DNA of 64,000 bases from an uncultured Aquimarina sp. (GCA_947496555.1 CANMDH010000027.1:261-64260); one strand, 5' to 3'. Counted from the first letter of the stretch, positions 49,327 through 64,000 are shown. The notes: generated from the sequence alone by a model not told the origin. Numbers and translations are program-made.

Positions 49327-49358
49327 AATGATTTAGGATATTTAAGATGTATATATTT

Positions 49359-49391
49359 AAAAAAGGTGGAACTATAGCTTCCATCTTTTTT
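49359..49391 (+). terminator. rho-independent (bidirectional-type) terminator after the three-gene operon
   Basis: AAAAAAGGTGGAA, a 7-nt loop (CTATAGC), then TTCCATCTTTTTT. The stem has one G:U pair. An A-tract precedes it and a T-tract follows. It begins 33 nt after the stop at 49326. Confidence 0.7.
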
Positions 49392-49558
49392 ATTTTCAAT
49401 TATGAAAACTTCGATTTGAAGTTTCAATGAATAAGAAAAACCGACCATAATAACACAAAGCAACTATATTGGTATGCTTCACTTTAAAAAATTGGAATGC
49501 TACATTTTAGAAGATCTTAAATAGCTTTGTTCATTAGGCTATTCATAATATATGTAAT

Positions 49559-49584: not shown

Positions 49585-51762
49585 ATGAAATACATTTATT
49601 TTATTTTAATACTTGTAGCGACTGCTTGTACTAAAGAACCACAAACAGAATTATCCCGTTGGGAAACTCATAGTGCCAATACCGAGATCATTAGAGATAA
49701 TTTCGGAGTCCCGCATATTTATGGAAAAACTGATGCAGATGCTGTATTTGGTTTATTATATGCTCAATGTGAAGATGATTTTAATCGTGTTGAAAGAAAT
49801 TATATTTGGGCCATCGGTCGACTTGCCGAGGTGGAAGGAGAAGAAGCAATTTATAGCGACCTCAGAGCAAGATTATTTATGACCAAAGAGGAAGCTATAC
49901 AGCGCTATGAGACTAGTCCCGAATGGTTAAAAAAACTTTGCGTAGCCTTTGCAGACGGAATTAATTATTACTTGTATAAACATCCAGAGGTTAAACCAAA
50001 ATTATTGACACATTTTGAGCCCTGGATGCCGATGTATTTTAGTGAAGGATCTATAGGAGGAGACATCGAACGTATATCCACAAAAGATATCGAAAAATTT
50101 TATGAAAAAGAACCCTCATCGGTTTTAGCAAGTAAAATTAATGATGGGCTCATACGCCTTGCAGATAATGAGCCAAGAGGTTCTAATGGATTTGCTATTT
50201 CAGGAAAATTAACAACATCAGGCAATGCTATGCTACTTATTAATCCACATACATCATTTTTCTTTCGTGGAGAAGTACATATGGTAAGTGAAGAAGGCTT
50301 AAATGCCTATGGAGCTGTTACCTGGGGACAATTTTTTGTCTATCAAGGATTCAACGAAAAAACGGGGTGGATGCATACTTCAACATATACCGATGTCATA
50401 GATAGTTTTATCGAAACTATTGTAAAGAATGAAAATGGATTGAAATATAAATATGGTGATGAACTTCGACCTGTTGAGACATTGGATGTTACCCTTAAAT
50501 ATAAAGAAGATGGAGTAATTAAAGAACGTAACTTTCCGGTGTACCGAACCCATCACGGTCCAATCACTCATGCAATTGATAAGAAATGGGTAGCAACAGC
50601 GATGATGTGGGATCCTGTAAAAGCCTTAACCCAGTCTTTTACTAGGACAAAATTAAATGGACATAAAGAGTTCAAAGAAATGATGAATATACGAACAAAC
50701 TCTTCCAATAATACGGTATACGCTGATGCAGAAGGAAATATAGCCTATTACCATGGTAACTTTATTCCGATAAGAAATGTAAAATATGACTATACGATGC
50801 CAGTAGATGGTAGTGACCCATCTACAGATTGGAAAGGATTACATACGGTAGATGAATCTATCACGGTGTTTAATCCTGCTAATGGATGGATACAAAACTG
50901 TAATTCTACACCTTTTACAAGCGCTGCAGAATACAGTCCAAAAGCTGAAGATTACCCCAGATATATGTCACGAAATCATGAAAATTTTCGAGGTGTGCAT
51001 GCAATACGATTATTAGAAAAAACTAAGGGATTAACGTTGGATAAATTGATTGAAATGGCATACGATCCCCATTTACCGGCTTTTGAAGTATTAATTCCAG
51101 GACTGATAGCTGCATATGATACATCTTCGGATCCTGATAAATCTTTAAATGAACCTATTGAAGTATTAAGAAACTGGGATTTTGCCGTGTCCAAAGAATC
51201 GGTGGCTATGTCATTGGCTCATTATTATGGCACTCATTATTTACAGGAGGGGAAAGCTCCTGAAAAGCTGAGTTTTATGGAACGGGTAAACTACTTTAGT
51301 GTAGCATCTCCAAAAGAAGAGCGAATTGCTATTTTTAAAAAAGCAGTAACCAAACTAACTGAAGACTTTGGTAGCTGGAATACTCAATGGGGCGATATTA
51401 ACCGTTATCAAAGACTTAATGGAGCGATCAGGCAACCTTTTGATGATAATAAACCTAGCATTGGCGTAGGTTTGGCTTCAGGCAGATGGGGAGCGCTGGC
51501 TTCATTTGGTGCTAGAGCTTATGAAGGTACCAAACGCATGTATGGGACATCGGGTAATAGCTTTGTTGCTGTGGTAGAATTTGGTGATAAGATAAAGGCA
51601 AAAAGTTTGCTCGCTGGTGGTCAAAGCGGACATCCTGATTCTCCGCATTTTGACGATCAGGTTCAACGGTATGTGGATGTAAATTTTAAAGATGTCGCTT
51701 ATTACCGAGAAGACGTAGAAAAAAGATCAAAAGCCGTATATCATCCAGGAAAGGAGAAGTAA
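49585..51762 (+). CDS. penicillin acylase family Ntn-hydrolase (AHL-acylase-like), lipoprotein
   Basis: The ATG at 49585 gives the lipobox LILVATAC, whereas the track start at 49564 is a TTG. The N-terminal FGVPHIYG motif and the autoproteolytic site RGSNGFAISG (Ser nucleophile) are typical of the family. Confidence 0.88.
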   Translation: MKYIYFILILVATACTKEPQTELSRWETHSANTEIIRDNFGVPHIYGKTDADAVFGLLYAQCEDDFNRVERNYIWAIGRLAEVEGEEAIYSDLRARLFMTKEEAIQRYETSPEWLKKLCVAFADGINYYLYKHPEVKPKLLTHFEPWMPMYFSEGSIGGDIERISTKDIEKFYEKEPSSVLASKINDGLIRLADNEPRGSNGFAISGKLTTSGNAMLLINPHTSFFFRGEVHMVSEEGLNAYGAVTWGQFFVYQGFNEKTGWMHTSTYTDVIDSFIETIVKNENGLKYKYGDELRPVETLDVTLKYKEDGVIKERNFPVYRTHHGPITHAIDKKWVATAMMWDPVKALTQSFTRTKLNGHKEFKEMMNIRTNSSNNTVYADAEGNIAYYHGNFIPIRNVKYDYTMPVDGSDPSTDWKGLHTVDESITVFNPANGWIQNCNSTPFTSAAEYSPKAEDYPRYMSRNHENFRGVHAIRLLEKTKGLTLDKLIEMAYDPHLPAFEVLIPGLIAAYDTSSDPDKSLNEPIEVLRNWDFAVSKESVAMSLAHYYGTHYLQEGKAPEKLSFMERVNYFSVASPKEERIAIFKKAVTKLTEDFGSWNTQWGDINRYQRLNGAIRQPFDDNKPSIGVGLASGRWGALASFGARAYEGTKRMYGTSGNSFVAVVEFGDKIKAKSLLAGGQSGHPDSPHFDDQVQRYVDVNFKDVAYYREDVEKRSKAVYHPGKEK

Positions 51763-51856: not shown

Positions 51857-53722
51857 TTATTTGATTGTAAAGAGGATATTATCTCTTGGATTTGTATCAG
51901 GGATGTAATCATTCCCTAATTGTATTTTTTCAATTCCCTTCGTTGTCTTGACTGTGAGGATCATGTTGTCTTTTTCTTGCCAAACCTTAGCAGAGTGATG
52001 AATACTTTGTGTTGTTTGATCTTTAAAAGTTATGGTTACGTCCAAAGGCACAGGAAGATCTCCTATTTTTTTTACAGTAATTTCATATACATTATTTCTT
52101 TCTTCTACTTGGGCAATACCCAAATCGGGATATCCGTTTTCAAAAAACCACTTTTTCCAAAACCAGTTTAAGTTTTGCTGAGATGTTTCATTTACATTGT
52201 AAAAAAAATCTAATGGAGTAGGATGTTTTCCTTTCCATGTTTCTATATAAGTGGCCAAACATTGCTTGAATAATTCTTTCCCCAGTATATCTTGCAAAAC
52301 ATATAATCCTACAGCTGGTTTCATATAGAAATTGAAATAGGAAGTTCTGCCTTTTAGCATGGTAGATTTGGTAGTAGATGCAATATTCGTATTAGTGTTT
52401 GCATAGGAGCTCATATTTCTGGCGTAACGTGTTAACCGATTTAATGAAGGTTCTTGTTTTTGCTGATACTCGTATGGGATCATTGCTGCAAATGCTTCAT
52501 CCATCCAGGCATGTTCTGTTTCATTGGTCAATACGTAAAATGGAAAATAATTATGAGCAATTTCATGGGCAGTGACATCTACGGTTCGGCCTCTGTTATC
52601 GGCCGAGGGATCATTTGCAATCATAGGATACTCCATACCACTGGCTCCGTTGGTACCATTAAATATGGTCATCGTTGGAAAGGGGAAAGGGTATGGAAGT
52701 TCATTTGAAAAGTAACGAATAGATTTTTTTGCTAAAAGCGCTACTTCGGTAAAATCTTTAGAATCAATCGGATAGGCGGTTTCTATAAAAATATTATTTC
52801 CGGAAACACCCTTTAATGATGTTCCATCCCAAAGGAAATGATCGCTCACACCAAAAGCCACATCAGAAACATTATTCGCTTTAAACACCCATTTATTATG
52901 AGACGTTATATGTTTTTCTGACGTGTAATCATCTTGATGTACTATCGAAATAATATCATCGCTTTTCTGAGCTAGTTTATAGTTATTATATATGTTTGGT
53001 GATAATACTTTTTCTGCATTTTGCAGCAGTCCAGAACCCCAAACCAGGTAGTCATCAGGTACTGTAACCGTATACTCATAATCACCGAGATCATAATAAA
53101 ATTCCTGTCCTCCGGTATGTATATTTTCGTCCCAGCCATTGATATCATCGTACACTGCAATTTTTGGGTACCACTGTCCCAGAAAGAAAGAAGTTTCATC
53201 TTTTGCCCCCATTCGGATATTACTTTTGGTAGGAATTGAAAAAACCCAGCTTAATTCAATATTAATCAATTCTGAAGGGAATATAGGTTGAGTAGGTTTT
53301 GCTATAATAAGAGTTCCTTCTGTACTATAATCCTTAATAAGTTCATCGCCAATTTTAAGCCGTTTGATCAAAACCCCAGAGTGAACATCATCTGGATGGA
53401 CTGGGTCATCTCGACGACTTCCTTTTTTATACAAATTTTGAAAAACGTGAAAAACGATCTGATGGAGTGTATCTGGACTATTGTTTTGGTACTTTATTAT
53501 TTCGGTACCAATTAGTTCTTTTTTTTGAGGGATAACTTCTGCATTAATCGTGTATGAAGCCGTGTTTTGCCAGTATTGTGTGCCTGGTATTCCTTTGGCT
53601 GTTCGAGTTCCTCTTTTAATGGCATCAGAAAAACTCTTGCTCATCGGTAATTTTTGCTGACTTACACCAACAAAAATTAAAAGAAACATAAAACTACAAC
53701 ATAGTACCTTTTTATAGAACAT
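51857..53722 (-). CDS. secreted M1 family (gluzincin) metallopeptidase
   Basis: 621 aa with a signal peptide. HEIAH, then exactly 18 residues, then E (WMDEAF), which is the HExxH-X18-E motif. Confidence 0.88.
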   Translation of the reverse strand: MFYKKVLCCSFMFLLIFVGVSQQKLPMSKSFSDAIKRGTRTAKGIPGTQYWQNTASYTINAEVIPQKKELIGTEIIKYQNNSPDTLHQIVFHVFQNLYKKGSRRDDPVHPDDVHSGVLIKRLKIGDELIKDYSTEGTLIIAKPTQPIFPSELINIELSWVFSIPTKSNIRMGAKDETSFFLGQWYPKIAVYDDINGWDENIHTGGQEFYYDLGDYEYTVTVPDDYLVWGSGLLQNAEKVLSPNIYNNYKLAQKSDDIISIVHQDDYTSEKHITSHNKWVFKANNVSDVAFGVSDHFLWDGTSLKGVSGNNIFIETAYPIDSKDFTEVALLAKKSIRYFSNELPYPFPFPTMTIFNGTNGASGMEYPMIANDPSADNRGRTVDVTAHEIAHNYFPFYVLTNETEHAWMDEAFAAMIPYEYQQKQEPSLNRLTRYARNMSSYANTNTNIASTTKSTMLKGRTSYFNFYMKPAVGLYVLQDILGKELFKQCLATYIETWKGKHPTPLDFFYNVNETSQQNLNWFWKKWFFENGYPDLGIAQVEERNNVYEITVKKIGDLPVPLDVTITFKDQTTQSIHHSAKVWQEKDNMILTVKTTKGIEKIQLGNDYIPDTNPRDNILFTIK

Positions 53723-53819: not shown

Positions 53820-56800
53820 TTATTCTAAATTCTTTTTGACCTTCGCAAATTCAACTTTTAAATGTTCAAAACGCATTTCGGCTTCTTTTCCAGGTAACTG
53901 ATCTGCATTACTGATCATATGATACAAATACATAATCTGATCAACCAGCATTGGCTTTGGGTAAGCGCCATCATCATTTTTTAATTGTTTAAGTACTTTT
54001 TCTACTTTTTTTAATCTTTCTGATGATTGGTTCTTTTCTTTCAACTTAATCACTTCGGTTTCCAGAGTGTCTTGAAACTTACGTGCTGCTGTAAGAAGTT
54101 CGCTAATTTCTTGTTGCTTTTCAATTTGCAAAACTATATCTTCTTTGGATACCCCATTGGCTTTTACCCTGGGATCGATTAAAAGTTCAAATGTTTGTTC
54201 TATAACGTTAGTATTCGTGCTTAATCTAACGGTGTAAATTCCCGGAGCTGCAATGGGTCCATTTTGAAATCTTCTAGAAACCTCTTTTGCCCATGGGCCG
54301 GAATGTCTTAAGTTCCAATTAAAACGATTTAAACCAGGTGTGTTGCTCAACGATTTGTCGACTAGATAAATGGTTTCATTAGTACTCATTGTACTTACAA
54401 CATTTTCAATTAATTTTGGTTTGGTTGTATCACTAACGTATGTCGCAATAATTATTTTATTAGCATTAAGAATATCTAGTTTTACACTAGTTTTATGATC
54501 TTTTGGTATATAATAATCAATAGCAACATTAGCTTGTGGATACACAGGAAATGTAGTTTGGCCATTACGTATCTTCGGATAACGATATCTTATCGTATTA
54601 TCCGGTTTAAATAACCAGGGAGAACTTCCTAGTTTATTGATTTCGGCTTGTCTTAACGAAGTGATATTATCCAATATCCAAAAAGAACGACCCATAGTAC
54701 TTACAATAAGGTCACCACGATAGATTTTAATATCGGTTACCGGCGTAACCGGCAAATTTTGCTGAAATGATTGCCATTTTTTACCATCATCGAATGAAAT
54801 AAACAATCCAAATTCTGTGCCCGCATACAATAGGCCTTCTCTTATAGGGTCTTCTCTTATTACCCGCGTTGGAAAATCAGCAGGAATACCATTACTGTCA
54901 GTGGTAATTAATTCCCAGGTTTTCCCATAATTCTCAGTTTTGTAAATATAAGGCTTTTCATCTCCCAATTGATATCGTAATATAGATACGTAGGCTTTTG
55001 CCGAATTATGAGAAGACGGCTCAACAGCATCAACCCGACCACCTTCTGGTAATTTAGATGGGGTAACGTTTGTCCATGTTTTTCCTCCATCTTTAGTAAG
55101 TTGAACTAGACCATCATTCGACCCTGTCCAAATTAATCCTTCTTTAATTTTAGATTCTCTGATAGAGTACAAGGTGCTATAATATTCTTCACCAGTAATG
55201 TCTCGGGTTATGGGGCTACCAGAAATAACTTGTTTGTCTTCCTCGAACGCTGTTAAATCTGGTGAAATTGTTTGCCAGGTTAATCCATCATCGGTCGTTT
55301 TGTGTAGATACTGGGAACCGTGATAGACGGTATTGGGATTATGTGGTGATATATGAATAGGAGCTACTCGCTGAAAGCGATATCGTAAATCTTTTGGATT
55401 ATGGCCATAGATATTGCTTGCACCAACATAGTATCCTTTTTCAACACTTGTTCGTTTATCAAAAACATTAAAACGTCCCTTACAGTTTGAATATACTATA
55501 GAATGATTTCCAGGTTTGGGTACTGCAGGTCCAGTTTCGCATCCTCCGGTATTTATAATCCAGCCAACTCCGGTATTTTGGATGGCACTTGGCGCAAAAC
55601 TTGGTACTGCGATAGTAGTATAATTATCCTGTTGACCGGCATACAACCAATAAGGGTACTGGTCATCAACTTCTACTTGGTAAAGTTCTGCTGTAGGTTG
55701 GTTAAACTGGCTTGACCATGTTTTACCCCCATTGTGAGTTACATTGGCACCCCCATCATTGGATTGAATAAATAACTCAGGATTATCTGGATTGATCCAG
55801 ATATCATGATTATCCCCATGTGGAGGCTTCATCTTAGTCCATGTTTTACCCCCATCGATAGATTTTAACATTGGGTTTGCCATTGAATATACTATTTCAG
55901 GGTTTTTAGGATCGACTTCAACGTTGGTATAATAAAAAGGTCTATTTACTAAACCTGCTTCATTTGATACCTGTTCGAAAGATTTGCCTTGATTTTCAGA
56001 TTTATACAGGCCCCCTTCTTTTCCCGGAGCCTCAATAATAGCATATAGGATACTTGAATCGACTGGTGACACTGCCAAATCTATCTTTCCTATTAATCCT
56101 TGAGGCAGGCCTTGACTTAGTTTTTTCCAGGTTTTTCCACCGTTTACTGATTTATAGATACCTCCTTCGCTCGTATCACCCCCAGAAACGATAGTCCATG
56201 GTTTGCGCTGAGCTTTCCATGCTGCTGCATAAACCACCTCAGGATTACCTGGCAACAATTCTAAATCAGCAAAGCCAACTTCATCAGAAATAAAAAGAAC
56301 TTTTTCCCAGGAGACTCCACCGTCTATAGTTTTGTAAATACCACGTTCAGAGTTGGATTTAAATGCATTACCAATAGCTGCAACCCACACAATGTTATGA
56401 TTTGTAGGATCTATTTCTACTGCACCTATATGTCCAGTATTCTTTAAACCTATATGCTGCCATGTTTTTCCTGCGTCAATTGATTTATACATTCCTTTAC
56501 CGGTAATAACGTTACTTCTAAGACCGTCAGAACCAGTACCCACATAAACAATATTAGCATCATGATGTGCTACGCCAATATCACCTATCGATGGCGTTGC
56601 GAAGTACCCATCAGAAACATTCTTCCATGAGGTGCCATAGTCTTCGGTTTTCCAAACTCCGCCACCTGAAGCTCCAAGATAAAAAGTTGAAGGTGTGGTT
56701 GGAGCCCCAGTAACTGCTGTTACACGACCACCTCTTCCGGGACCAACAGTTCTGTATTTCAATGCGCTAAAATTCTGTGCTATTATCTCTTGGGCACCTA

Positions 56801-56843
56801 AAAAGAGTAATAAACAAAAAATAATGTCATTTGTTATCCTCAT
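53820..56843 (-). CDS. secreted BNR/Asp-box repeat protein (sortilin/VPS10-like double propeller)
   Basis: About 11 Asp-boxes (SxDxGxTW-like): TEDYGTSW, SIDAGKTW, TIDGGVSW, SVNGGKTW, SIDGGKTW, HNGGKTW, TTDDGLTW, TKDGGKTW, TENYGKTW and SFDDGKKW, among others. The ATG at 56843 gives a signal peptide (MRITNDIIFCLLLFLGAQEIIAQ). The track start is 56894. Confidence 0.85.
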   Translation of the reverse strand: MRITNDIIFCLLLFLGAQEIIAQNFSALKYRTVGPGRGGRVTAVTGAPTTPSTFYLGASGGGVWKTEDYGTSWKNVSDGYFATPSIGDIGVAHHDANIVYVGTGSDGLRSNVITGKGMYKSIDAGKTWQHIGLKNTGHIGAVEIDPTNHNIVWVAAIGNAFKSNSERGIYKTIDGGVSWEKVLFISDEVGFADLELLPGNPEVVYAAAWKAQRKPWTIVSGGDTSEGGIYKSVNGGKTWKKLSQGLPQGLIGKIDLAVSPVDSSILYAIIEAPGKEGGLYKSENQGKSFEQVSNEAGLVNRPFYYTNVEVDPKNPEIVYSMANPMLKSIDGGKTWTKMKPPHGDNHDIWINPDNPELFIQSNDGGANVTHNGGKTWSSQFNQPTAELYQVEVDDQYPYWLYAGQQDNYTTIAVPSFAPSAIQNTGVGWIINTGGCETGPAVPKPGNHSIVYSNCKGRFNVFDKRTSVEKGYYVGASNIYGHNPKDLRYRFQRVAPIHISPHNPNTVYHGSQYLHKTTDDGLTWQTISPDLTAFEEDKQVISGSPITRDITGEEYYSTLYSIRESKIKEGLIWTGSNDGLVQLTKDGGKTWTNVTPSKLPEGGRVDAVEPSSHNSAKAYVSILRYQLGDEKPYIYKTENYGKTWELITTDSNGIPADFPTRVIREDPIREGLLYAGTEFGLFISFDDGKKWQSFQQNLPVTPVTDIKIYRGDLIVSTMGRSFWILDNITSLRQAEINKLGSSPWLFKPDNTIRYRYPKIRNGQTTFPVYPQANVAIDYYIPKDHKTSVKLDILNANKIIIATYVSDTTKPKLIENVVSTMSTNETIYLVDKSLSNTPGLNRFNWNLRHSGPWAKEVSRRFQNGPIAAPGIYTVRLSTNTNVIEQTFELLIDPRVKANGVSKEDIVLQIEKQQEISELLTAARKFQDTLETEVIKLKEKNQSSERLKKVEKVLKQLKNDDGAYPKPMLVDQIMYLYHMISNADQLPGKEAEMRFEHLKVEFAKVKKNLE

Positions 56844-56906
56844 AAATTTGTTTTTATGCTCGAGTTTAGCATTAAATGGAATTGTTTTATTCATTACTTT
56901 ATAGAA

Positions 56907-58517
56907 CTAATTATTTTTTTTAAGAGTAGGATAGCTAATTCCTAATTGTTCCAAATATGAATCGTATTTATTTTCATCGTAATAAAATTGCTCTAACTTC
57001 TCTCTGTATTGGTTCATGATGTTTTTATTCAAGTAAATTGGCGGCTTATCATCAGCCGAAATCATGGGTTTATACTTTGTTTCTTTACTTTGTACATCAT
57101 TAAAATAATTCCATGCTTGTTCTACCAGAATTGGTTTTAGTAACAGGTCAAGTATAGTCATTGCATCTACTTTTGCTCCTGAGGTGGCACCTTTGTGAGC
57201 AATAGGGGTGGCCATTGCAATTGCATTGCTCCAATGATGCCCTTGCAAACCTGGTATATTTGAAGGGTATCTGAGTGTCACTGTCGGAACTTTCCATGAC
57301 ACGTCTCCAATATCATCAGACCCCCCGCTTACAGGTCTTTTAAGGGGAATTCCTATTGGTGAAAGTTTTGTATTTAGGCCATCTGTTTTTTTTGAATTTA
57401 CTTCCTTTTGAACTGCTTTTGCAAGCATCTGGTCTTCGTTTGACCATTGTGGCAAGCCTATTTGCTGTATGTTTTCATACATTTGCTCAGCAATAATCTT
57501 ATTAAAATGTCGTGGCCATGCCGCTCCAACAATTTTAGAGGTCATTGCAGTATCAGTCATTAGGGCTGCTCCTTTAGCTATATTGTTTGCGTCATTATAC
57601 ATTTCAATAATTCCTTCATAGGTAATATCCCGAAAGTAATACCATATAGAGGCTTTTGACGGGACAACATTAGGTTGGTCTCCTGCATCGGTAAAAATAG
57701 AATGTGACCTTTTCAAAGGGTGCAAATGTTCTCGTTTATAATTCCATCCCACATTCATGAGTTCGGCAGCGTCAAGTGCGCTTCTCCCTCTCCAGGGTGA
57801 ACCTGCAGAATGTGCAGCTTCTCCATCAAAGGTATACTCCACAGATATTAGCCCAGTACCTCTTGCCTGACCCCACGAGACGCTTAAGTTACTGCTCACA
57901 TGAGTAAAGATGCAAACATCAATATCATCAAAAAAACCATCTCGAGTGTACCATGCTTTAGAAGCAAGCAATTCTTCGGCTATACCAGGCCAAAGTACTA
58001 AAGTACCTTTGATATCTTCTCGTTCCATTAGTTGTTTTACGGCCAGGGCAGCAGTAATATTTAGTGGTATTCCCGAGTTATGTCCCTCGCCATGCCCTGG
58101 CGCTCCATCGACCATTGGTTTGTGGTAAGCAACCCCAGGGTATTGAGAAGCTTTCGGAATACAATCAACATCACTGCCCAATGCGATAACTGGACCTTTA
58201 CCATTACTCCATCTAGCAAACCATGCTGTGGGTATGCCAGCGACCCCCTTTTCAATTTGAAATCCGTTTTTCTCTAATATTTGGCTTAAGTATTTTGAAG
58301 ATTCAGTTTCTTGAAACCCTAATTCTGAAAAACTGAATATTTTATCTATCATAACTTGTGTTTGCTTATGATTAGATTCAACTAAGTCCGCAACTTCAGA
58401 TTTCAATTTTGTAATTTGTTTTTTTGAGTATTTTTTTTGAGCGACTATTTGATTAAAACTACTTAATAATAGTAGCACGCAAAAAAACAGAGTTGATTTT
58501 TTTAGAGGTGCTTTCAT
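56907..58517 (-). CDS. exported M20 family amidohydrolase/peptidase (AbgB-like)
   Basis: 536 aa. Signal peptide (LFFCVLLLLSSFNQIVAQ) and M20D-like metal-ligand regions (ALGSDVDCIP, GHGEGHNSG). Confidence 0.8.
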   Translation of the reverse strand: MKAPLKKSTLFFCVLLLLSSFNQIVAQKKYSKKQITKLKSEVADLVESNHKQTQVMIDKIFSFSELGFQETESSKYLSQILEKNGFQIEKGVAGIPTAWFARWSNGKGPVIALGSDVDCIPKASQYPGVAYHKPMVDGAPGHGEGHNSGIPLNITAALAVKQLMEREDIKGTLVLWPGIAEELLASKAWYTRDGFFDDIDVCIFTHVSSNLSVSWGQARGTGLISVEYTFDGEAAHSAGSPWRGRSALDAAELMNVGWNYKREHLHPLKRSHSIFTDAGDQPNVVPSKASIWYYFRDITYEGIIEMYNDANNIAKGAALMTDTAMTSKIVGAAWPRHFNKIIAEQMYENIQQIGLPQWSNEDQMLAKAVQKEVNSKKTDGLNTKLSPIGIPLKRPVSGGSDDIGDVSWKVPTVTLRYPSNIPGLQGHHWSNAIAMATPIAHKGATSGAKVDAMTILDLLLKPILVEQAWNYFNDVQSKETKYKPMISADDKPPIYLNKNIMNQYREKLEQFYYDENKYDSYLEQLGISYPTLKKNN

Positions 58518-58606
58518 AAATATTGATAATTAAGATGTTAATTTTTTTTTGACTTTTTTTTAAATAGTAATAGTTTTTAAAACACGTTGACTTATAGTTA
58601 ACCTAT

Positions 58607-59764
58607 TTATTTTTTACGAGCATTATATTTATCTAATATTTTAAGTGTTTTTTCGATAGGTAATGCGTTCATCATTCTTCCTTTTTGTCCTTTCATATCG
58701 GTTGCCATAAAAAGAGAATTATAAATCGCTTCTTCGGTAGCTTCAACTACTGCCAGAAAAAGAGGAGACATGTGGTCATTGGAAACTTCTAAAACAGGTT
58801 TTTCTATTTTTTTTGAATCATACGGGATACGAAGTTGAGGGTGAGTACTAAAGGCTATGCTATAATCACCACTACCATTAGATGAAAAAGACCCTACTTT
58901 ACCAAATGCCAGAAAAGAACGTTTTGCCAGACGTTTTAAATTTCTGGCTGATAATGGAGCATCAGTAGCAATAATAATCATACACGAACCATCAACCACA
59001 TAAGGAACATCCTGCGCCATATAAAAATTATTGAGTTCTTCTCCTACAGGAGCACCATTGATGGTAAGAATGCCTCCAAAATTGGTTTGAACGAGGACAC
59101 CAATCGTATAACCTCCTTTATCTTTTGGGAGTACTCGGGATGAAGTCCCAATACCTCCTTTAAAGCCCAAACATCTAGTTCCTGTTCCTGCACCTACATT
59201 TCCCTCGGCGACAATTTTTGTAGTTGCTGCATGTATAGCTTCGATAACGTGATTATCTTTTACGTTCCGTCCTCTAATATCATTCAGCCATCCATCGTTG
59301 GTTTCCCCTACCACCGGATTAACTGACCTGATGTTGGAATTTTCATGGGTCGATAGCGTGTAATTTACAATGCTATTGGCAACAAGAAAAGCATTGAGTG
59401 TGTTAGTTAAGGCTATTGGTGTTTCGAGATTACCTAGCTCTTCGATTTGTGTAAAACCAAGTGCTTTACCAAAACCGTTACCTACAAATACTGCTGCGGG
59501 TACTTTTTCCCTGAAAATGTTTCCCTGATGAGGTATGATTACTGTGACACCAGTACGTATCGAATCTCCAACTATCAATGTTTTTTGTCCTACCGAAACA
59601 CCATTTACATCGGTAATAGCATTCCATTTTCCCGGTGTAAGGATACCAGGTTCAATACCAAAATCCCTAGCTCTTTTCCTTTGATTTTGGGCTTGTAAAT
59701 TTAAAAAGAAACTAAAAACAAATATTAATAGTATTGACCAGTGTATCATTTTAGATAAAATCAT
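58607..59764 (-). CDS. exported P1/S58 (DmpA-type) aminopeptidase family protein
   Basis: 385 aa with a signal peptide. GTGTRCLGFKGGIGTSS and DGSCMIIIATDAPL are typical of DmpA/BapA-like Ntn peptidases. Confidence 0.82.
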   Translation of the reverse strand: MILSKMIHWSILLIFVFSFFLNLQAQNQRKRARDFGIEPGILTPGKWNAITDVNGVSVGQKTLIVGDSIRTGVTVIIPHQGNIFREKVPAAVFVGNGFGKALGFTQIEELGNLETPIALTNTLNAFLVANSIVNYTLSTHENSNIRSVNPVVGETNDGWLNDIRGRNVKDNHVIEAIHAATTKIVAEGNVGAGTGTRCLGFKGGIGTSSRVLPKDKGGYTIGVLVQTNFGGILTINGAPVGEELNNFYMAQDVPYVVDGSCMIIIATDAPLSARNLKRLAKRSFLAFGKVGSFSSNGSGDYSIAFSTHPQLRIPYDSKKIEKPVLEVSNDHMSPLFLAVVEATEEAIYNSLFMATDMKGQKGRMMNALPIEKTLKILDKYNARKK

Positions 59765-59776
59765 TGTTTGTTATTT

Positions 59777-61366
59777 TTATTGCTCATTTTTTGCCTTTCT
59801 TAAGACTTTTCCTGCCTTTAGATTTTGAAATACTTCGTTATCAATAGAAAGTTGTCCGTTGATCATCACATAATATATCCCCTCTGGGTACTGATGTGGT
59901 TTTTCAAATGTTGCTTTGTCAATAATTGTTTTTGGATCAAAGATTACTATATCGGCCTTCATTTTTTCTTTAATAACTCCCCTGTCGTTTAAACCAAGGG
60001 TTATCGACGGAAGTTTTGTCATTTTATATATTGCCTCTGATAAGGAGAGTACTGATTTTTCTCTAACATAATGCCCTAAAACTCTTGGAAAAGTACCGTA
60101 CCACCGTGGGTGCGGATGTCCCATTCCGGGTTTGACCAGTCTTCCATCAGAAGCGATCATGGTTTGCGGATGCTTCATAATTCGCTCTACATCACCTTCA
60201 TCCATGGCATGATAAACACACGAAGCACCTCCTTTTACCTGAGCTTCTATTACGAGATCTGCACCATTTTCTACAGTTGGTTTTAATCCTTTTAACTCGC
60301 ACCAATATTTCAAAGTCTTTCCCTCTAGTTCAGGCATCCATTTTACCTTGGCAAATTGTATTCTATTTAGGTCACTGCCTCCGCGATCATTTAAAATATT
60401 GAAAATAATTCCAGACTTGATACTATCTCTTAGTTTGGGGTTTAGCACTCTTTGTTTAAAGGCATCGTTGCCTCCGGCTCTTGCCCAACTTGGAATTAAT
60501 ACAGATATCCCTGTATAGCTGGCATTATATGGGTATTGATCCATTTTAATATCAAGTCCAGCGGCCCTGGCAGAATCTACCATGGCCAACGTCCTGGTAC
60601 TTTTACCCCACATGGGTTTTCCAATTACTTTATGATGTGTTAATATCACTGGGATATCTGCTTTTTCAGAAATGAAAATAGCTTCTTTTACCGCTTCGAA
60701 CAACCCTAATCCTTCTTCTCTTAAATGTGATGTATAAATTCCTTCTTCGGCTGATGCAGCTTTTGATAGTTCGATAACTTCGTCTACTTTAGAGAAAGCT
60801 CCCGGTAAATATTTTAAACCAGTAGAAATTCCATACGCTCCTTCTTGCATCGCCTGTTGTATTTGTTCCTTCATAAGATACAATTCTTGTTGAGTTGGAG
60901 CTCTGTTTTCTAACCCCATCACATTTTTCCTAACTGTATTATGGCCGATAAGGTATGCTACATTCATTCCGATGCCAACTTTTGTCAATGTATCCAGATA
61001 TTTTCCAAAGGGCCAGGGACTAGACCCATCCGGACCACCTAAAGCCGTAGTTACTCCTTGTCTAATATGGCTTTCACAGTTTGGAAGTTCAAGGATAGGA
61101 TCCAGGTGAGCATGCATGTCGATAAATCCGGGCGCAACTACCATATTACTGGCATCGATAATACGCATGGCCTTTGCTTTAGAAAGATCTCCTATTTTTT
61201 CGATAACATCATCCTTTATGCCTATATCCATAGGTATTGCATCACTTCCTGTACCATCATAGATAGTACCATTTTTTATAATAATTGTATATACTTCTTG
61301 CTTAGAACAACTACATAAAATAACTGTAATTAGGAAGAAACTAAATAAGATATTTGACTTAATCAT
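59777..61366 (-). CDS. N-acyl-D-amino-acid deacylase (D-aminoacylase) family amidohydrolase, lipoprotein
   Basis: 529 aa. Lipobox ITVILCSC, metal motif GFIDMHAHLD, and the size and C-terminal beta-domain typical of D-aminoacylases. Its start overlaps the DAAT stop by 4 nt (ATGA). Confidence 0.85.
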   Translation of the reverse strand: MIKSNILFSFFLITVILCSCSKQEVYTIIIKNGTIYDGTGSDAIPMDIGIKDDVIEKIGDLSKAKAMRIIDASNMVVAPGFIDMHAHLDPILELPNCESHIRQGVTTALGGPDGSSPWPFGKYLDTLTKVGIGMNVAYLIGHNTVRKNVMGLENRAPTQQELYLMKEQIQQAMQEGAYGISTGLKYLPGAFSKVDEVIELSKAASAEEGIYTSHLREEGLGLFEAVKEAIFISEKADIPVILTHHKVIGKPMWGKSTRTLAMVDSARAAGLDIKMDQYPYNASYTGISVLIPSWARAGGNDAFKQRVLNPKLRDSIKSGIIFNILNDRGGSDLNRIQFAKVKWMPELEGKTLKYWCELKGLKPTVENGADLVIEAQVKGGASCVYHAMDEGDVERIMKHPQTMIASDGRLVKPGMGHPHPRWYGTFPRVLGHYVREKSVLSLSEAIYKMTKLPSITLGLNDRGVIKEKMKADIVIFDPKTIIDKATFEKPHQYPEGIYYVMINGQLSIDNEVFQNLKAGKVLRKAKNEQ

Positions 61367-62214
61367 GTCTGTTTTTTTAGTGTTAAAAAGGCTTCCTGAA
61401 GCTTTTTAGTTATTGGACCTGTATTATTTCCTTTATAAAAAGAGTATTCATTTATTTGCTGCACAGAAACTATCTGTGTTGTTGTTCCTGTCAAAAAAAC
61501 TTCGTCCAATAGAAAGATATCTTGTTCTTTTATTGCCTCCTGTCTAATTTCTATACCTAAATCATGACAGAGCTGTATCACAATTTGTCGGGTAATACCG
61601 TCTAAAATGAAATTATTGGCAGGGTGGGTGTACACTATATTATTTTTTGTAAAGAAAACATTACAATGTGAAGCTTCGGTAATGATACCATCCCGTATTA
61701 GAATAGCTTCGTATGCTCCATGTTTCATTGCATACTCGTTTACCATAACATTGCCTAATAGAGAAGTCATTTTAATATCACAACGACCCCACCTATAATC
61801 TGATGTAGTGACTGCTTTTATGTGTTTTTGATTGATTTCTGGAAGTTCAAAAGGCATGATATACATCATTACTGTTGGTGTTACTTCTTTGGGATAAGCA
61901 TGTTTTCTTGGAGCGATACCGCGGGTAATCTGTATGTATATCAAACAATCTTGACCTTCTAAATCTGAAACTTTTCTTAACCTTTTAATATCATTTAAAA
62001 GAGAATTAGCATCAAAATCTATATTTACTTTTTGAAGGCAATCTGAGAGACGTTCCAAATGAGCATCTGCATAAAAAAAATCACCGTTCACTTGTGCCAT
62101 CACTTCATAGACACCATCGCCAAATATAAAACCTCTGTCAAATACAGATATTTTGGCATCTTTATGATCTAATATTTTGCCGTTTAGATACACTTTTTTC
62201 GGGTAGCCATTCAT
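61363..62214 (-). CDS. dat: D-amino-acid transaminase (class IV aminotransferase)
   Basis: 283 aa with no signal peptide. FIFGDGVYEV and WGRCDIKMTSLLGNV closely follow the Bacillus D-amino-acid aminotransferase catalytic-Lys region (RCDIKSLNLLG). Confidence 0.88.
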   Translation of the reverse strand: MNGYPKKVYLNGKILDHKDAKISVFDRGFIFGDGVYEVMAQVNGDFFYADAHLERLSDCLQKVNIDFDANSLLNDIKRLRKVSDLEGQDCLIYIQITRGIAPRKHAYPKEVTPTVMMYIMPFELPEINQKHIKAVTTSDYRWGRCDIKMTSLLGNVMVNEYAMKHGAYEAILIRDGIITEASHCNVFFTKNNIVYTHPANNFILDGITRQIVIQLCHDLGIEIRQEAIKEQDIFLLDEVFLTGTTTQIVSVQQINEYSFYKGNNTGPITKKLQEAFLTLKKQT

Positions 62215-62254
62215 TTGCTTTGAGTTAAGTTTTTATTTAATATAATGATAAGTA

Positions 62255-63237
62255 TTAATTAATATATCCCGGAACGGCGATTGTTGCCATTGTATGTAAT
62301 CCTGATGGTGCTTTTAAAATACTTTTTACACTATTTATAGTGATCGCACAAGTTGCAATATCACCGTTTATGCCCGTATCAATTTCTGAAACAAATGAAG
62401 GAACACCTTTTATTGTTACTCTATCAAAGGACCTTGGTTCACCGATTGCTGCTTTAAAATGCATTTCAATTTTGCTGGTTCCGTTGACATATCCGTGTGA
62501 TATTTGCTCTACGCCGCGAGCATTACCTTTCTTAATATTCATTGATGTAACATTTATGTTATCCTCTGCGATGACCGGTTTAAGATCTTCAGTAACTTCA
62601 TCTAGCTTTAAACCTATACTCTGCGCTAAGAAATAAACAGACTCTTTTAATCCGACATGCCTTAATGTGCCTGTGAGTTCTTTCTTTTTAAAAGCCTCTA
62701 AATCGAGTCCTGCTCCAATTTTTTGTTGAAAAGGGACTCTTCTGGGTGATGCATCCTGAATACGTTCTACCTTAATACTCTCAATGTTTTTACATACTGA
62801 ACTTAATACCGAGGGTAGATAATCCATTAAAAAACCAGGGTTTACCCCAGTTCCCAGGCAAGCAATATTGTATTTCTTGCAAATAGCATCTATTCTCTCG
62901 CTTATTTTAGGGTTTTCCTCCCAAGGATAAGATAACTCTTCACAAGTTGATACTATAGATATACCATGTTTGGCCACATCTTCTATTTGTGATTCTAATT
63001 TCTGGATATCGGATACTGTGGTTATGATAGCTAAATCAGGTTTTTTAGAGAGTTATCAACAGTATTTTCTATGAATACGTTAGAAGCTTTTCCGTTAATA
63101 AATTCCCCGAAATCCTTTCCTTTTAAATCTTTATTAATGTCCACAGCAGCAACAGTTTGTATTTCATTTTTCTCATCAATGTATCTACCTATTTGCCGAC
63201 CTAACGGACCCAATCCTATCTGAATTATAGTAATCAT
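62255..63237 (-). pseudogene. DapB-like NAD(P)-dependent amine dehydrogenase (2,4-diaminopentanoate dehydrogenase family), interrupted by a frameshift in an A6 run
   Basis: The N-terminal ORF 63031-63237 has the Rossmann start MITIIQIGLGPLGRQIG. The C-terminal ORF 62255-62977 stays open upstream to 63052. The two frames overlap at CTCTAAAAAACCTGAT (T6 on the plus strand, 63041-63046). One extra A would give ...DNSLKKPDLAIITTV... as a single protein of about 327 aa. Confidence 0.75.
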
Positions 63238-63260
63238 ATATGTTATCGTTTTTTAATAGT

Positions 63261-63323
63261 CAAGTTATTTTACAATATATTACCTTGCAAAGTATAACTT
63301 GCTCTATAGTTTAGAGCATACCA
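63261..63323. promoter_or_regulatory. inverted repeat plus ATACCA hexamer in the MocR/operon divergent region (candidate operator)
   Basis: CAAGTTAT (63261-63268) and ATAACTTG (63294-63301) are inverted copies. ATACCA at 63318-63323 matches the B. subtilis GabR half-site sequence. This is suggestive only. Confidence 0.25.
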
Positions 63324-63349
63324 ATTATTTTTTTTAACGCATAACAGTT

Positions 63350-64000
63350 TTGAACGAAAAATTAAATAGCATTCTCTTTTCTCATGGATTTAACTATCAA
63401 AATGATGAGCAGAGTCTTTATGAGAAATTGTTTAGTTCTATTGCAAAAGCAATTATTGAAAAGAAGTTAAATAAAGGGTATAAATTACCATCTACCAGAT
63501 TACTTGCTCAGGATTTAAATTTGTCCCGAAGTACCGTGCTTAAGGCATATGAAATACTTTGTATAGAAAAATATATTAGTGCCGTACATGGTTCAGGTTA
63601 TTTTGTCAATGATGTACAAGATAAAAAGATAAAATATAGTCTGAAAACACCTGTAAAGCATAATCCAAAAACTAATGGCAAGGTTCATGTCTATCCTGAA
63701 ATTTCGAAGAGGGCTAAACAGTTTCGTAGAAGTGTAAGCATAATGAACCGAAGTGAACATAGAGGTATTGCTTTTAGACCCGGTTTACCACCCCTTGATG
63801 CATTCCCAGTAAGACAGTGGCAGAACTTAATGAATAATTACTGGAAAGATGTCACCTATTCTGATTTATCGTATCGAGATGCGCTTGGTCTGGATGGGCT
63901 AAGAAAGAACATAGCTAATTATTTAAAGATTTATAGAAATATTCAGTGTGATTATAAACAGGTAATTATTGTAACAGGATCTTTACATTCCTTAGCTATT
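63350..64000 (+). CDS. MocR/GabR-type regulator (GntR wHTH fused to a PLP aminotransferase-like domain), N-terminal part; continues past the window end
   Basis: Not in the ORF track because it runs off the edge. The frame is open from 63338 to 64000, and TTG at 63350 is the only plausible start. It reads ...SLYEKLFSSIAKAIIEKKLNKGYKLPSTRLLAQDLNLSRSTVLKAYEILCIEKYISAVHGSGYFV (GntR HTH), then FRPGLPPLDAFPVRQWQ (start of a MocR aminotransferase domain). Confidence 0.8.
   Translation, partial: MNEKLNSILFSHGFNYQNDEQSLYEKLFSSIAKAIIEKKLNKGYKLPSTRLLAQDLNLSRSTVLKAYEILCIEKYISAVHGSGYFVNDVQDKKIKYSLKTPVKHNPKTNGKVHVYPEISKRAKQFRRSVSIMNRSEHRGIAFRPGLPPLDAFPVRQWQNLMNNYWKDVTYSDLSYRDALGLDGLRKNIANYLKIYRNIQCDYKQVIIVTGSLHSLAI

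Follow-up and report, generated by a model that had tools for sequence, protein, structure and literature searches.

We analysed a 64,000-nucleotide stretch of DNA from an uncultured Aquimarina sp. (GCA_947496555.1, CANMDH010000027.1:261-64260, on contig C27 of a 5.77-Mb genome in 481 contigs), here called the window, which ends in a string of genes running divergently from a gene for a MocR/GabR-type regulator. With slightly better than even confidence we take this region to be an accessory MocR-controlled regulon for the scavenging of D-amino-acid-containing and N-capped peptides in an Aquimarina-like flavobacterium. The sequence at 49.4-65.1 kb is best interpreted as a single regulon made up of two transcription units. 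The first, on the minus strand, would comprise seven genes, encoding an ord-like amine dehydrogenase (broken in this strain), a D-amino-acid transaminase (Dat), a D-aminoacylase-like lipoprotein, an S58 peptidase, an M20D amidohydrolase, a BNR/sortilin-like protein and an M1 metallopeptidase; the second, on the plus strand, would consist of the gene for a glutaryl-acylase-like N-terminal nucleophile (Ntn) hydrolase.

The MocR-linked gene string and its candidate operator

The regulator gene begins at 63350 on the plus strand and reaches 870 nt beyond the window end at 64000; it is complete on the contig and encodes 506 amino acids (aa) from a TTG start, which aligns with the ATG start of the orthologue in locus L007, from an Aequorivita metagenome-assembled genome (MAG). 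The protein combines an N-terminal GntR winged helix-turn-helix with a fold-type I aminotransferase-like domain (Aminotran_1_2) and its pyridoxal phosphate (PLP) lysine, the hallmarks of the MocR/GabR type, and matches the PdxR and GabR structures with E 2e-52, the PLP lysine being aligned (TFNK vs AFSK). On the minus strand follow the ord-like dehydrogenase in two fragments, an N-terminal Rossmann part (63031-63237) and a C-terminal part (62255-62977), then dat (61363-62214), the lipoprotein of the N-acyl-D-amino-acid deacylase family, here called type A (59777-61366), the exported S58 (DmpA/BapA-type) Ntn aminopeptidase (58607-59764) and the exported M20D amidohydrolase (56907-58517). A first-pass annotation had placed these open reading frames (ORFs) correctly, as an ORF scan confirmed, and its family calls for the five genes all held in Pfam and NCBIfam profile and solved-structure comparisons; the ATGA overlap of the dat stop with the deacylase start and the 12-nt gap before the S58 gene were likewise present. 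It had, however, ended the string at 56907, while the genes for an exported BNR/sortilin-like double-propeller protein of 1024 aa (53820-56894) and an exported M1 family metallopeptidase (51857-53722), the final gene of the string, continue on the same strand. The gaps measure 12 nt between the M20D stop and the BNR gene, 89 nt before the M20D gene and 97 nt before the M1 gene, and no terminator-like sites were seen on the coding strand inside the string, in a sigma-70 promoter/terminator scan that is uninformative for a Bacteroidota genome and whose overall counts were at shuffle level. Convergent with the operon, a gene at 49585-51762 on the plus strand encodes an Ntn acylase that belongs to the penicillin-amidase family and is a lipoprotein. 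Among public sequences the region is most closely matched by locus L003, a contig of an uncultured Aquimarina sp., in which all ten proteins are 96-99% identical and the order is identical.

Alignment of the MocR-proximal intergenic regions of related loci revealed a candidate operator, in which the box AATTGGTATG occurs twice as a direct repeat, with starts 23 nt (in some cases 24) apart, and which is followed, about 22 nt on, by a TAnnTTTG-like -7 element. In the window the double box occurs twice. Site 1 (63317-63347, minus strand) holds the boxes CTGTTATG (63347-63340) and TTGGTATG (63324-63317) with 23-nt spacing; box 2 ends 80 nt ahead of the ord ATG, and box 1 is 2 nt away from the start codon of the MocR gene; since the site abuts that codon, MocR is probably autoregulated. 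Site 2, which precedes the acylase gene by 86 nt (49469-49499, plus strand), holds TTGGTATG (49469-49476) and TTGGAATG (49492-49499), again 23 nt apart, with the -7-like element TAGCTTTG at 49522-49529, 22 nt downstream. The exact 9-mer ATTGGTATG has just two copies in the window, at these two sites, which are also the sole spacing-23 matches in the whole genome. Furthermore, the double box was found at MocR-linked promoters of L003 (two), L090, L091, L092, L093 (two), L097, L098 and L100, with no further matches elsewhere in 2.18 Mb of fetched loci, and upstream of the orthologous loci (L090-L093, L097, L098, L100) the spacing of site 1 is retained at 23-24 nt. Zero-mismatch matches in four related genomes (G050, G119, G200, G206) were confined to their SusCD-type loci; in four other relatives the search returned 1-mismatch matches alone, no more than a reversed-pattern control. 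Direct repeats near the predicted regulated promoter, spaced by whole helical turns, are what would be expected of a MocR operator, as MocR direct repeats are typically spaced by about two helical turns (PMC5320631). Thus the proposed MocR control gains support from an operator conserved across related loci.

Three further features were noted around these sites. One is a 7-bp inverted repeat without mismatches (TGCTCTA-AACTA-TAGAGCA, 63300-63318), which extends into the end of box 2 of site 1 and is not conserved in other loci. In L007 an insertion-sequence-type transposase gene (integrase-core-like, L007:2834-3553) lies between the MocR and ord-like genes and parts the regulator from the operon. 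Finally, a strong hairpin with a 14-bp stem and a T-run at 49358-49392 closes the preceding DUF3857 operon and sets the acylase promoter/operator region apart.

The TGGTAT core of the boxes is the reverse complement of ATACCA, the repeat of GabR. The arrangement resembles GabR-gabTD of B. subtilis and other MocR regulons in that the regulator is divergent from a catabolic operon and has a direct-repeat operator of about two helical turns (PMC5320631), and differs from them in that the presumed targets are exported hydrolases and Dat, not γ-aminobutyrate genes, and in that a second operator serves the acylase gene on the other strand. A text search of the 2016 MocR survey and its supplement (PMC5320631) gave no aminoacylase, deacylase or SusC entries, and our literature searches turned up no description of a MocR/D-aminoacylase/SusCD system.

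The transaminase and the predicted exported hydrolases

All the hydrolases begin with a putative export signal, either a lipobox or a signal-peptide-like hydrophobic segment, while in Dat and the ord-like dehydrogenase the catalytic fold begins directly at the N-terminus. Dat, annotated in the first pass as a D-amino-acid transaminase with a catalytic-lysine region like that of the Bacillus enzyme, proved to fit that description in both alignment and structure E-values. It belongs to fold-type IV (Aminotran_4, 157 bits) with the catalytic Lys145 motif, and its best model by a wide margin is TIGR01121, at 264 bits against 147-168 bits for branched-chain aminotransferase (BCAT) models, although the equivalog cutoff of 277.45 is missed by 13 bits. 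Bacillus-type D-amino-acid transaminases are its solved relatives at E 3e-57 to 7e-53, compared with 1e-34 for BCAT. The segment RCDIKmtsLLG aligns with RCDIKslnLLG of the Bacillus enzyme, and GDGVYEV, PRKH and ITEAS with GDGVYEV, PRAH and VTEGS. Equivalents of Lys145, Tyr31, Arg98-x-His100 and Glu177 are kept, among which Tyr31 and Arg98-x-His100 form the α-carboxylate trap in the Bacillus YM-1 structure. A role of dat as a housekeeping source of D-Glu was considered and is unlikely, because only 22/301 genera of the family carry this accessory gene. In one genus (genome G103, L218:9933-14764) a tight operon consists of genes for a BNR/sortilin-like protein (a 71% orthologue), an EamA transporter and dat, which links the BNR protein to D-amino-acid metabolism there.

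The S58 protein matches PF03576 with 386 bits over profile positions 1-306 of 307, and its self-cleavage Gly/Ser nucleophile motif DG-SCMIIIATDAPL aligns with KG-SIIMIIATDAPL of 2DRH, the Pyrococcus 'D-aminopeptidase' that is its best solved relative (E 1e-85). We surveyed the loci of the best 80 of 577 confirmed Bacteroidota matches, which are 58-98% identical. In 39/80 of them the S58 gene has, no more than 5 kb away and on its own strand, a gene for an Asp/Glu-family racemase of about 250 aa, which in 25 loci stands directly upstream (pairs include L006, L008-L012, L020-L024 and L031); a representative of these racemases passes the TIGR00035 cutoff. In L028 dat takes the position directly upstream of S58, and in the window, L003 and L007 dat stands in the same string. 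As racemase and dat alternate beside S58 and share only the conversion of free D-amino acids, this alternation is the strongest indirect evidence that the S58 clade releases D-residues, and it suggests as much. We found no published description of an S58-racemase pairing. Compared with DmpA, BapA and 2DRH, the proteins share the S58 domain and the Gly/Ser motif and differ in forming an apparently exported, racemase-paired Bacteroidota clade. In addition, S58 and M1 genes are adjacent in L006, L007 and L017.

The deacylase homologue aligns with the D-aminoacylase 1M7J at E 5e-84, and with the solved members overall at E 5e-84 to 8e-71. It keeps His67/His69, His220, His250, the catalytic Asp366 and the carboxylate binders Lys252, Tyr283 (YPY) and Arg377, with the aligned motifs DMHAH, SDG, HHK, QYPY and HPRWYG, and its lipobox Cys is conserved in eight homologues. 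The β-site metal ligand Cys96 is replaced by Asp (GGPDG vs GNCG), a substitution invariant in all 8 flavobacterial sequences of type A and of its paralogue, type B; in AfDam, Bb3285, KleDacyl and OngB this Cys ligates zinc (PMC12017989, PMC12149444). The enzyme thus resembles solved D-aminoacylases in fold, length and conserved residues and departs from them in its Asp for Cys96 and in being a lipoprotein. Judged by these residues it probably works like a D-aminoacylase, and we do not file it as a bona fide one; OngB-type sugar-acid deacetylation is a less likely alternative. In two MAGs, labelled Kangiella (Gammaproteobacteria) and Balneola (L004, L005), a type A deacylase and S58 are 85-88% identical to those of the window, which points to mis-binning or recent transfer.

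The M20D protein scores 161.6 bits with TIGR01891, above the cutoff of 153.75, and among solved structures it is related to HmrA, Xaa-Arg dipeptidase and AbgB. The earlier view that the deacylase, S58 and M20D enzymes are three hydrolases biased towards D-configured bonds is not supported: for M20D no D bias is known, and the deacylase lacks the Cys ligand of its family. The Ntn acylase of the second unit matches Penicil_amidase with 413 bits, has the lipobox LVATAC and is closest to glutaryl-7-aminocephalosporanic acid (7-ACA) and cephalosporin acylases (3S8R, E 8e-46), followed by the D-succinylase 7EA4 (E 7e-24).

In the mechanism that we infer, which extends to the substrates, the direction of regulation, co-transcription and D-specificity, MocR would act as a PLP-dependent sensor that binds an amino compound and works from the two AATTGGTATG boxes about 22 nt upstream of the -7 element in front of each unit. 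Six exported hydrolases would then dismantle peptides and N-acyl amino acids left unfinished by L-specific peptidases: the Ntn acylase and M20D could remove acyl or dicarboxylyl caps, M1 could trim L-residues, S58 could remove N-terminal D- or otherwise unusual residues and the D-aminoacylase-like lipoprotein could cleave X-D-amino-acid bonds. The D-amino acids so released, of which D-Glu, D-Asp or D-Ala are the likeliest, would be imported via a transporter encoded outside the locus and converted by Dat to 2-oxo acids. The ord-like amine dehydrogenase, the signature gene of the locus family, would probably draw on the same pool and be inactive in this strain.

The interrupted dehydrogenase and related loci

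The first-pass annotation had called the first gene a frameshifted, DapB-like amine dehydrogenase. The frameshift is real: the N-terminal fragment stops at a premature TAG and the C-terminal fragment lies in the -1 frame relative to it, and comparison with the intact 331-aa gene in the 97-99% identical L003 and in L007 traces the interruption to a 13-bp deletion with its junction near 63055/63054. This alignment rules out a homopolymer sequencing error or a single-base slip at an A6 run. Programmed -1 frameshifting was also considered, as the heptamer A_AAA_AAC (63046-63040, minus strand) stands in phase after the deletion and a -1 slip there would restore the ord frame; we take the heptamer to be a coincidence, because in the intact orthologue its letters stand in another phase, and no stimulatory structure can be seen.

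The domains and fold bear out the family call. The pieces contain DapB_N and DAP_DH_C domains, score 30 and 186 bits with NF040740 against a cutoff of 400, and together resemble the two-domain 2,4-diaminopentanoate dehydrogenase (7XDU, E 1e-52). A 2,4-diaminopentanoate or DapB-type role is contradicted by the active site, which we read via the P1-P21 map of AmDH4 (supplement of PMC11164908). Positions P1-P17 of the intact L003 orthologue, SCEGVNFLRQDRFIHVG, match the pattern described for G1, a group of native amine dehydrogenases (S C E G I/V N F/Y x R Q/V/I D/N R F/L I/V (-/H) V G). They depart from the signature of group G2 (Ord), with its Ala P2, Asn P10, Phe/Tyr P12, Val P13 and Gln P14 (PMC11164908), in having Cys, Gln, Arg, Phe and Ile there, and share with Ord the catalytic Glu (P3), Arg P9 and His P15. 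A true Ord and a role in ornithine fermentation were ruled out by these positions and by gene context: no ornithine-fermentation genes occur near the ord-like loci, whose neighbours are peptidase, SusCD and deacylase-like genes. By its predicted active site, the first gene is therefore an orphan group G1 native amine dehydrogenase, interrupted in the window. The substrates of G1 were described in a 2024 study as 'still not known', with genomic context giving no clear evidence, and racemic diaminopimelate, β-lysine, glutamine and others were inactive with the G1 dehydrogenases tested (PMC11164908). In the searched text and supplements of that study, 2-oxoglutarate and D-glutamate are not mentioned.

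Among 80 metagenomic homologues (L095-L174), 40-69% identical, the string SCEGVNFLRQDRFIHVG is nearly invariant, and since the active site hardly varies at such identities, this conservation implies one common G1 substrate across distant taxa. The GC content of eight measured contigs of this set ranges from 34 to 69%. The ord-like gene occurs in 6/301 Flavobacteriaceae genera, and neither it nor dat is present in another genome from the genus of the window. Its commonest neighbour in our survey is a D-aminoacylase-like gene (12 loci, same strand in 12/13 copies), a pairing that extends to three distant, high-GC contigs. Other neighbours are genes for class III aminotransferases (6), Asp/Glu racemase-like proteins (5), Dat (4), SDF dicarboxylate/amino-acid symporters (4) and D-serine-dehydratase-like proteins (3), with single cases of glutamate mutase with methylaspartase, C26 γ-glutamyl hydrolase and PGA_cap.

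The first-pass annotation had also proposed a survey of the five-gene string with the MocR gene, and in the S58 locus survey the full string was conserved just in L003 and, as a variant, in L007, and not beyond. In the remaining genera, and on the five nearest metagenome contigs with gene context (60-68% identical), the ord-like gene sits in a more regular locus, with MocR divergent from genes for an M14 carboxypeptidase, SusC, SusD, the ord-like enzyme and a type B D-aminoacylase-like paralogue, 37% identical to the type A protein of the window, followed by extras (dat, M20 enzymes, a glutamate-racemase-like protein of 512 aa, a DASS transporter, an AstE/AspA-type deacylase and fn3 proteins). 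A D-aminoacylase-like lipoprotein is encoded at each operator-bearing locus, and such sister loci that lack dat have a glutamate-racemase-like gene (L090, L092). The M14 genes heading the SusCD loci (L091:15305-16552; also L090, L092, L093, L098 and L100) are nearest to M14D cytosolic carboxypeptidases (CCPs), with a bacterial CCP and the CCP5 tubulin deglutamylase as nearest relatives, which hints that they may remove C-terminal acidic residues. A module of type A deacylase, S58 and M1 genes recurs in L004-L007, L017 and L031. The Gelidibacter locus L031, which has no clean double box and whose MocR is only 47% identical, also has two S12 genes, an aspartate-family racemase, an M20 enzyme and an isoaspartyl peptidase; S12 D-aminopeptidase-like genes are present in L007 as well. 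The operon in the window looks like a SusCD-less mosaic of a MocR/ord head, the deacylase-A/S58/M1 module and dat, M20D and BNR genes.

The relation to SusC/SusD polysaccharide utilisation loci is accordingly one of the sister loci (L090-L093, L096-L100), which have the dehydrogenase and the D-aminoacylase-like gene behind an operator-bearing SusCD pair. The window differs from such loci in that no SusC/SusD pair lies in 49.4-65.1 kb or in the next 12 kb, in that it encodes peptidases and amidases instead of glycoside hydrolases and in having MocR as regulator, not a hybrid two-component system, an extracytoplasmic function (ECF) sigma factor or SusR. Elsewhere in the genome, contig C81:7810-12462 encodes a SusC/SusD pair 47%/42% identical to that of the ord-type loci; as a candidate SusCD/M14 counterpart it was set aside, as the contig stops 82 nt after the pair.

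Alternative readings and implications

Several observations weigh against a regulon for D-amino-acid scavenging. M20D and M1 have L-specific relatives, and for the BNR protein no activity is known; the deacylase homologue falls below its NCBIfam cutoff (206 vs 340) and has no canonical Cys ligand, so that its substrate could differ, and the sugar-acid deacetylase OngB (PMC12017989) scores nearly as well against it. Unlike most of its relatives, the locus has neither an inner-membrane transporter gene nor a SusCD pair, the gaps before the M20D and M1 genes could house internal promoters, and most dat orthologues elsewhere stand in unrelated contexts. A general island for protein and peptide degradation with no stereochemical speciality, in which dat and the dehydrogenase are passengers, is compatible with the lack of D bias in M1, M20D and BNR, with the highly variable gene content of the sister loci, with the presence of S58 in most Bacteroidota without the cluster and with the varied dat contexts. 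We nevertheless hold it to be unlikely: the operator binds the units together as one set, and the pairing of racemase or dat genes with S58, and of deacylase-like genes with the dehydrogenase, recurs across distant taxa. Such recurrent pairs are hard to explain unless D-amino acids are involved, and the D-amino-acid theme of the first-pass annotation thus finds backing in comparative context, through the S58-racemase pairs, dat and the deacylase-like genes at operator-bearing loci.

The first-pass annotation had further suggested peptidoglycan stem peptides as an obvious natural source and, as speculation, a division of labour with a murein-glycan locus 20 kb upstream. That locus is indeed one of muropeptide-sugar salvage (AnmK, GH3, MFS, GHL10, SusCD and a NagB/PIG-L fusion), and the island might dismantle stem peptides (L-Ala-γ-D-Glu-meso-diaminopimelate-D-Ala-D-Ala) jointly with it. 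Dat would take D-Glu and D-Ala, enzymes of the D-aminoacylase family reportedly cleave L-Xaa-D-Glu-type bonds, and sister loci contain M14, DapE/ArgE-like M20 and glutamate-racemase-like genes. Peptides containing γ-D-Glu and D-Ala are also those handled in murein-peptide recycling by MpaA-YcjG-PepD of E. coli and YkfABCD of B. subtilis, with an M14-type enzyme that is here found in sister loci only. The likeness does not go further, as the island has no YcjG/YkfB-type epimerase and no NlpC/P60 enzyme, its hydrolases are predicted to be exported, not cytoplasmic, and D-residues would here go via Dat or a racemase after hydrolysis. The island also lacks a MurNAc-L-Ala amidase and an LD-carboxypeptidase, and nothing in it is specific to stem peptides; the M14 of the sister loci is nearest the deglutamylase type, with MpaA not among its matches, and the G1 dehydrogenases assayed did not act on racemic diaminopimelate (PMC11164908). 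A separate regulator, of the DeoR type, belongs to the murein-glycan locus, in which no MocR box occurs, and AnmK lies on another contig, or 500 kb off, in all six other genomes checked. With a different regulator and no conserved linkage, we rejected a functional connection between the two loci, and joint stem-peptide degradation seems to us rather improbable; peptidoglycan peptides are one possible substrate of several, beside poly-γ-glutamate and other D- or iso-linked peptides.

The similarity of the acylase to cephalosporin and glutaryl-7-ACA acylases raises the question whether the island degrades or detoxifies secondary metabolites with D-residues, such as β-lactams and non-ribosomal (lipo)peptides, with the penicillin-amidase-family acylase, the D-aminoacylase-like enzyme and, in relatives, S12 enzymes as key players. 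S12 β-lactamase-family genes in L007 and L031 and the sparse, accessory spread of the system (the ord-like gene in 6/301 genera) would fit. This is very improbable, however: the window has no S12 gene, the S12 genes of the relatives score best to D-aminopeptidase and not to β-lactamases, and neither efflux genes nor genes for acyl-group catabolism lie nearby.

Within the favoured interpretation of a D-amino-acid scavenging regulon, a more specific proposal for the dehydrogenase, to which we give little credence, is that G1 enzymes are NAD(P)-dependent and act as dehydrogenases on an acidic D-amino acid, with D-glutamate the most plausible. The reasoning rests on isosterism: the G1-specific Arg P12 suggests a carboxylate in place of a methyl group. 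If the methyl of (2R,4S)-2,4-diaminopentanoate were exchanged for a carboxylate, the (4S)-amine centre would become that of an (R)-α-amino acid, with the distal carboxylate equidistant. On this proposal the MocR/M14D/SusCD/D-aminoacylase-like loci would be the first outer-membrane utilisation loci for D-glutamyl/D-aspartyl peptides, with substrates such as poly-γ-glutamate or wall peptides, and the window would be a SusCD-less derivative in which Dat replaces the broken dehydrogenase.

D-amino acids make up a sizeable, slowly turned-over share of marine dissolved organic nitrogen, and to our knowledge little is known of how Bacteroidota, the main polymer degraders, handle D-containing peptides. 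Each component of the system falls into a known superfamily, and the novelty lies in how the regulon is built, in the deacylase clade with Asp for Cys, in the coupling of S58 with racemases and in the lead that gene context gives for G1. The locus family offers a defined regulator, operator and enzyme set, it provides evidence of a genetic coupling between the S58 peptidase, widespread in Bacteroidota, and the racemisation or transamination of amino acids, and it adds a Cys-to-Asp metal-site variant to the D-aminoacylase family. Moreover, it provides a context lead for the orphan G1 dehydrogenases (cf. PMC11164908), in the company of D-aminoacylase-like enzymes, racemases, dicarboxylate transporters and deglutamylase-like M14 carboxypeptidases.

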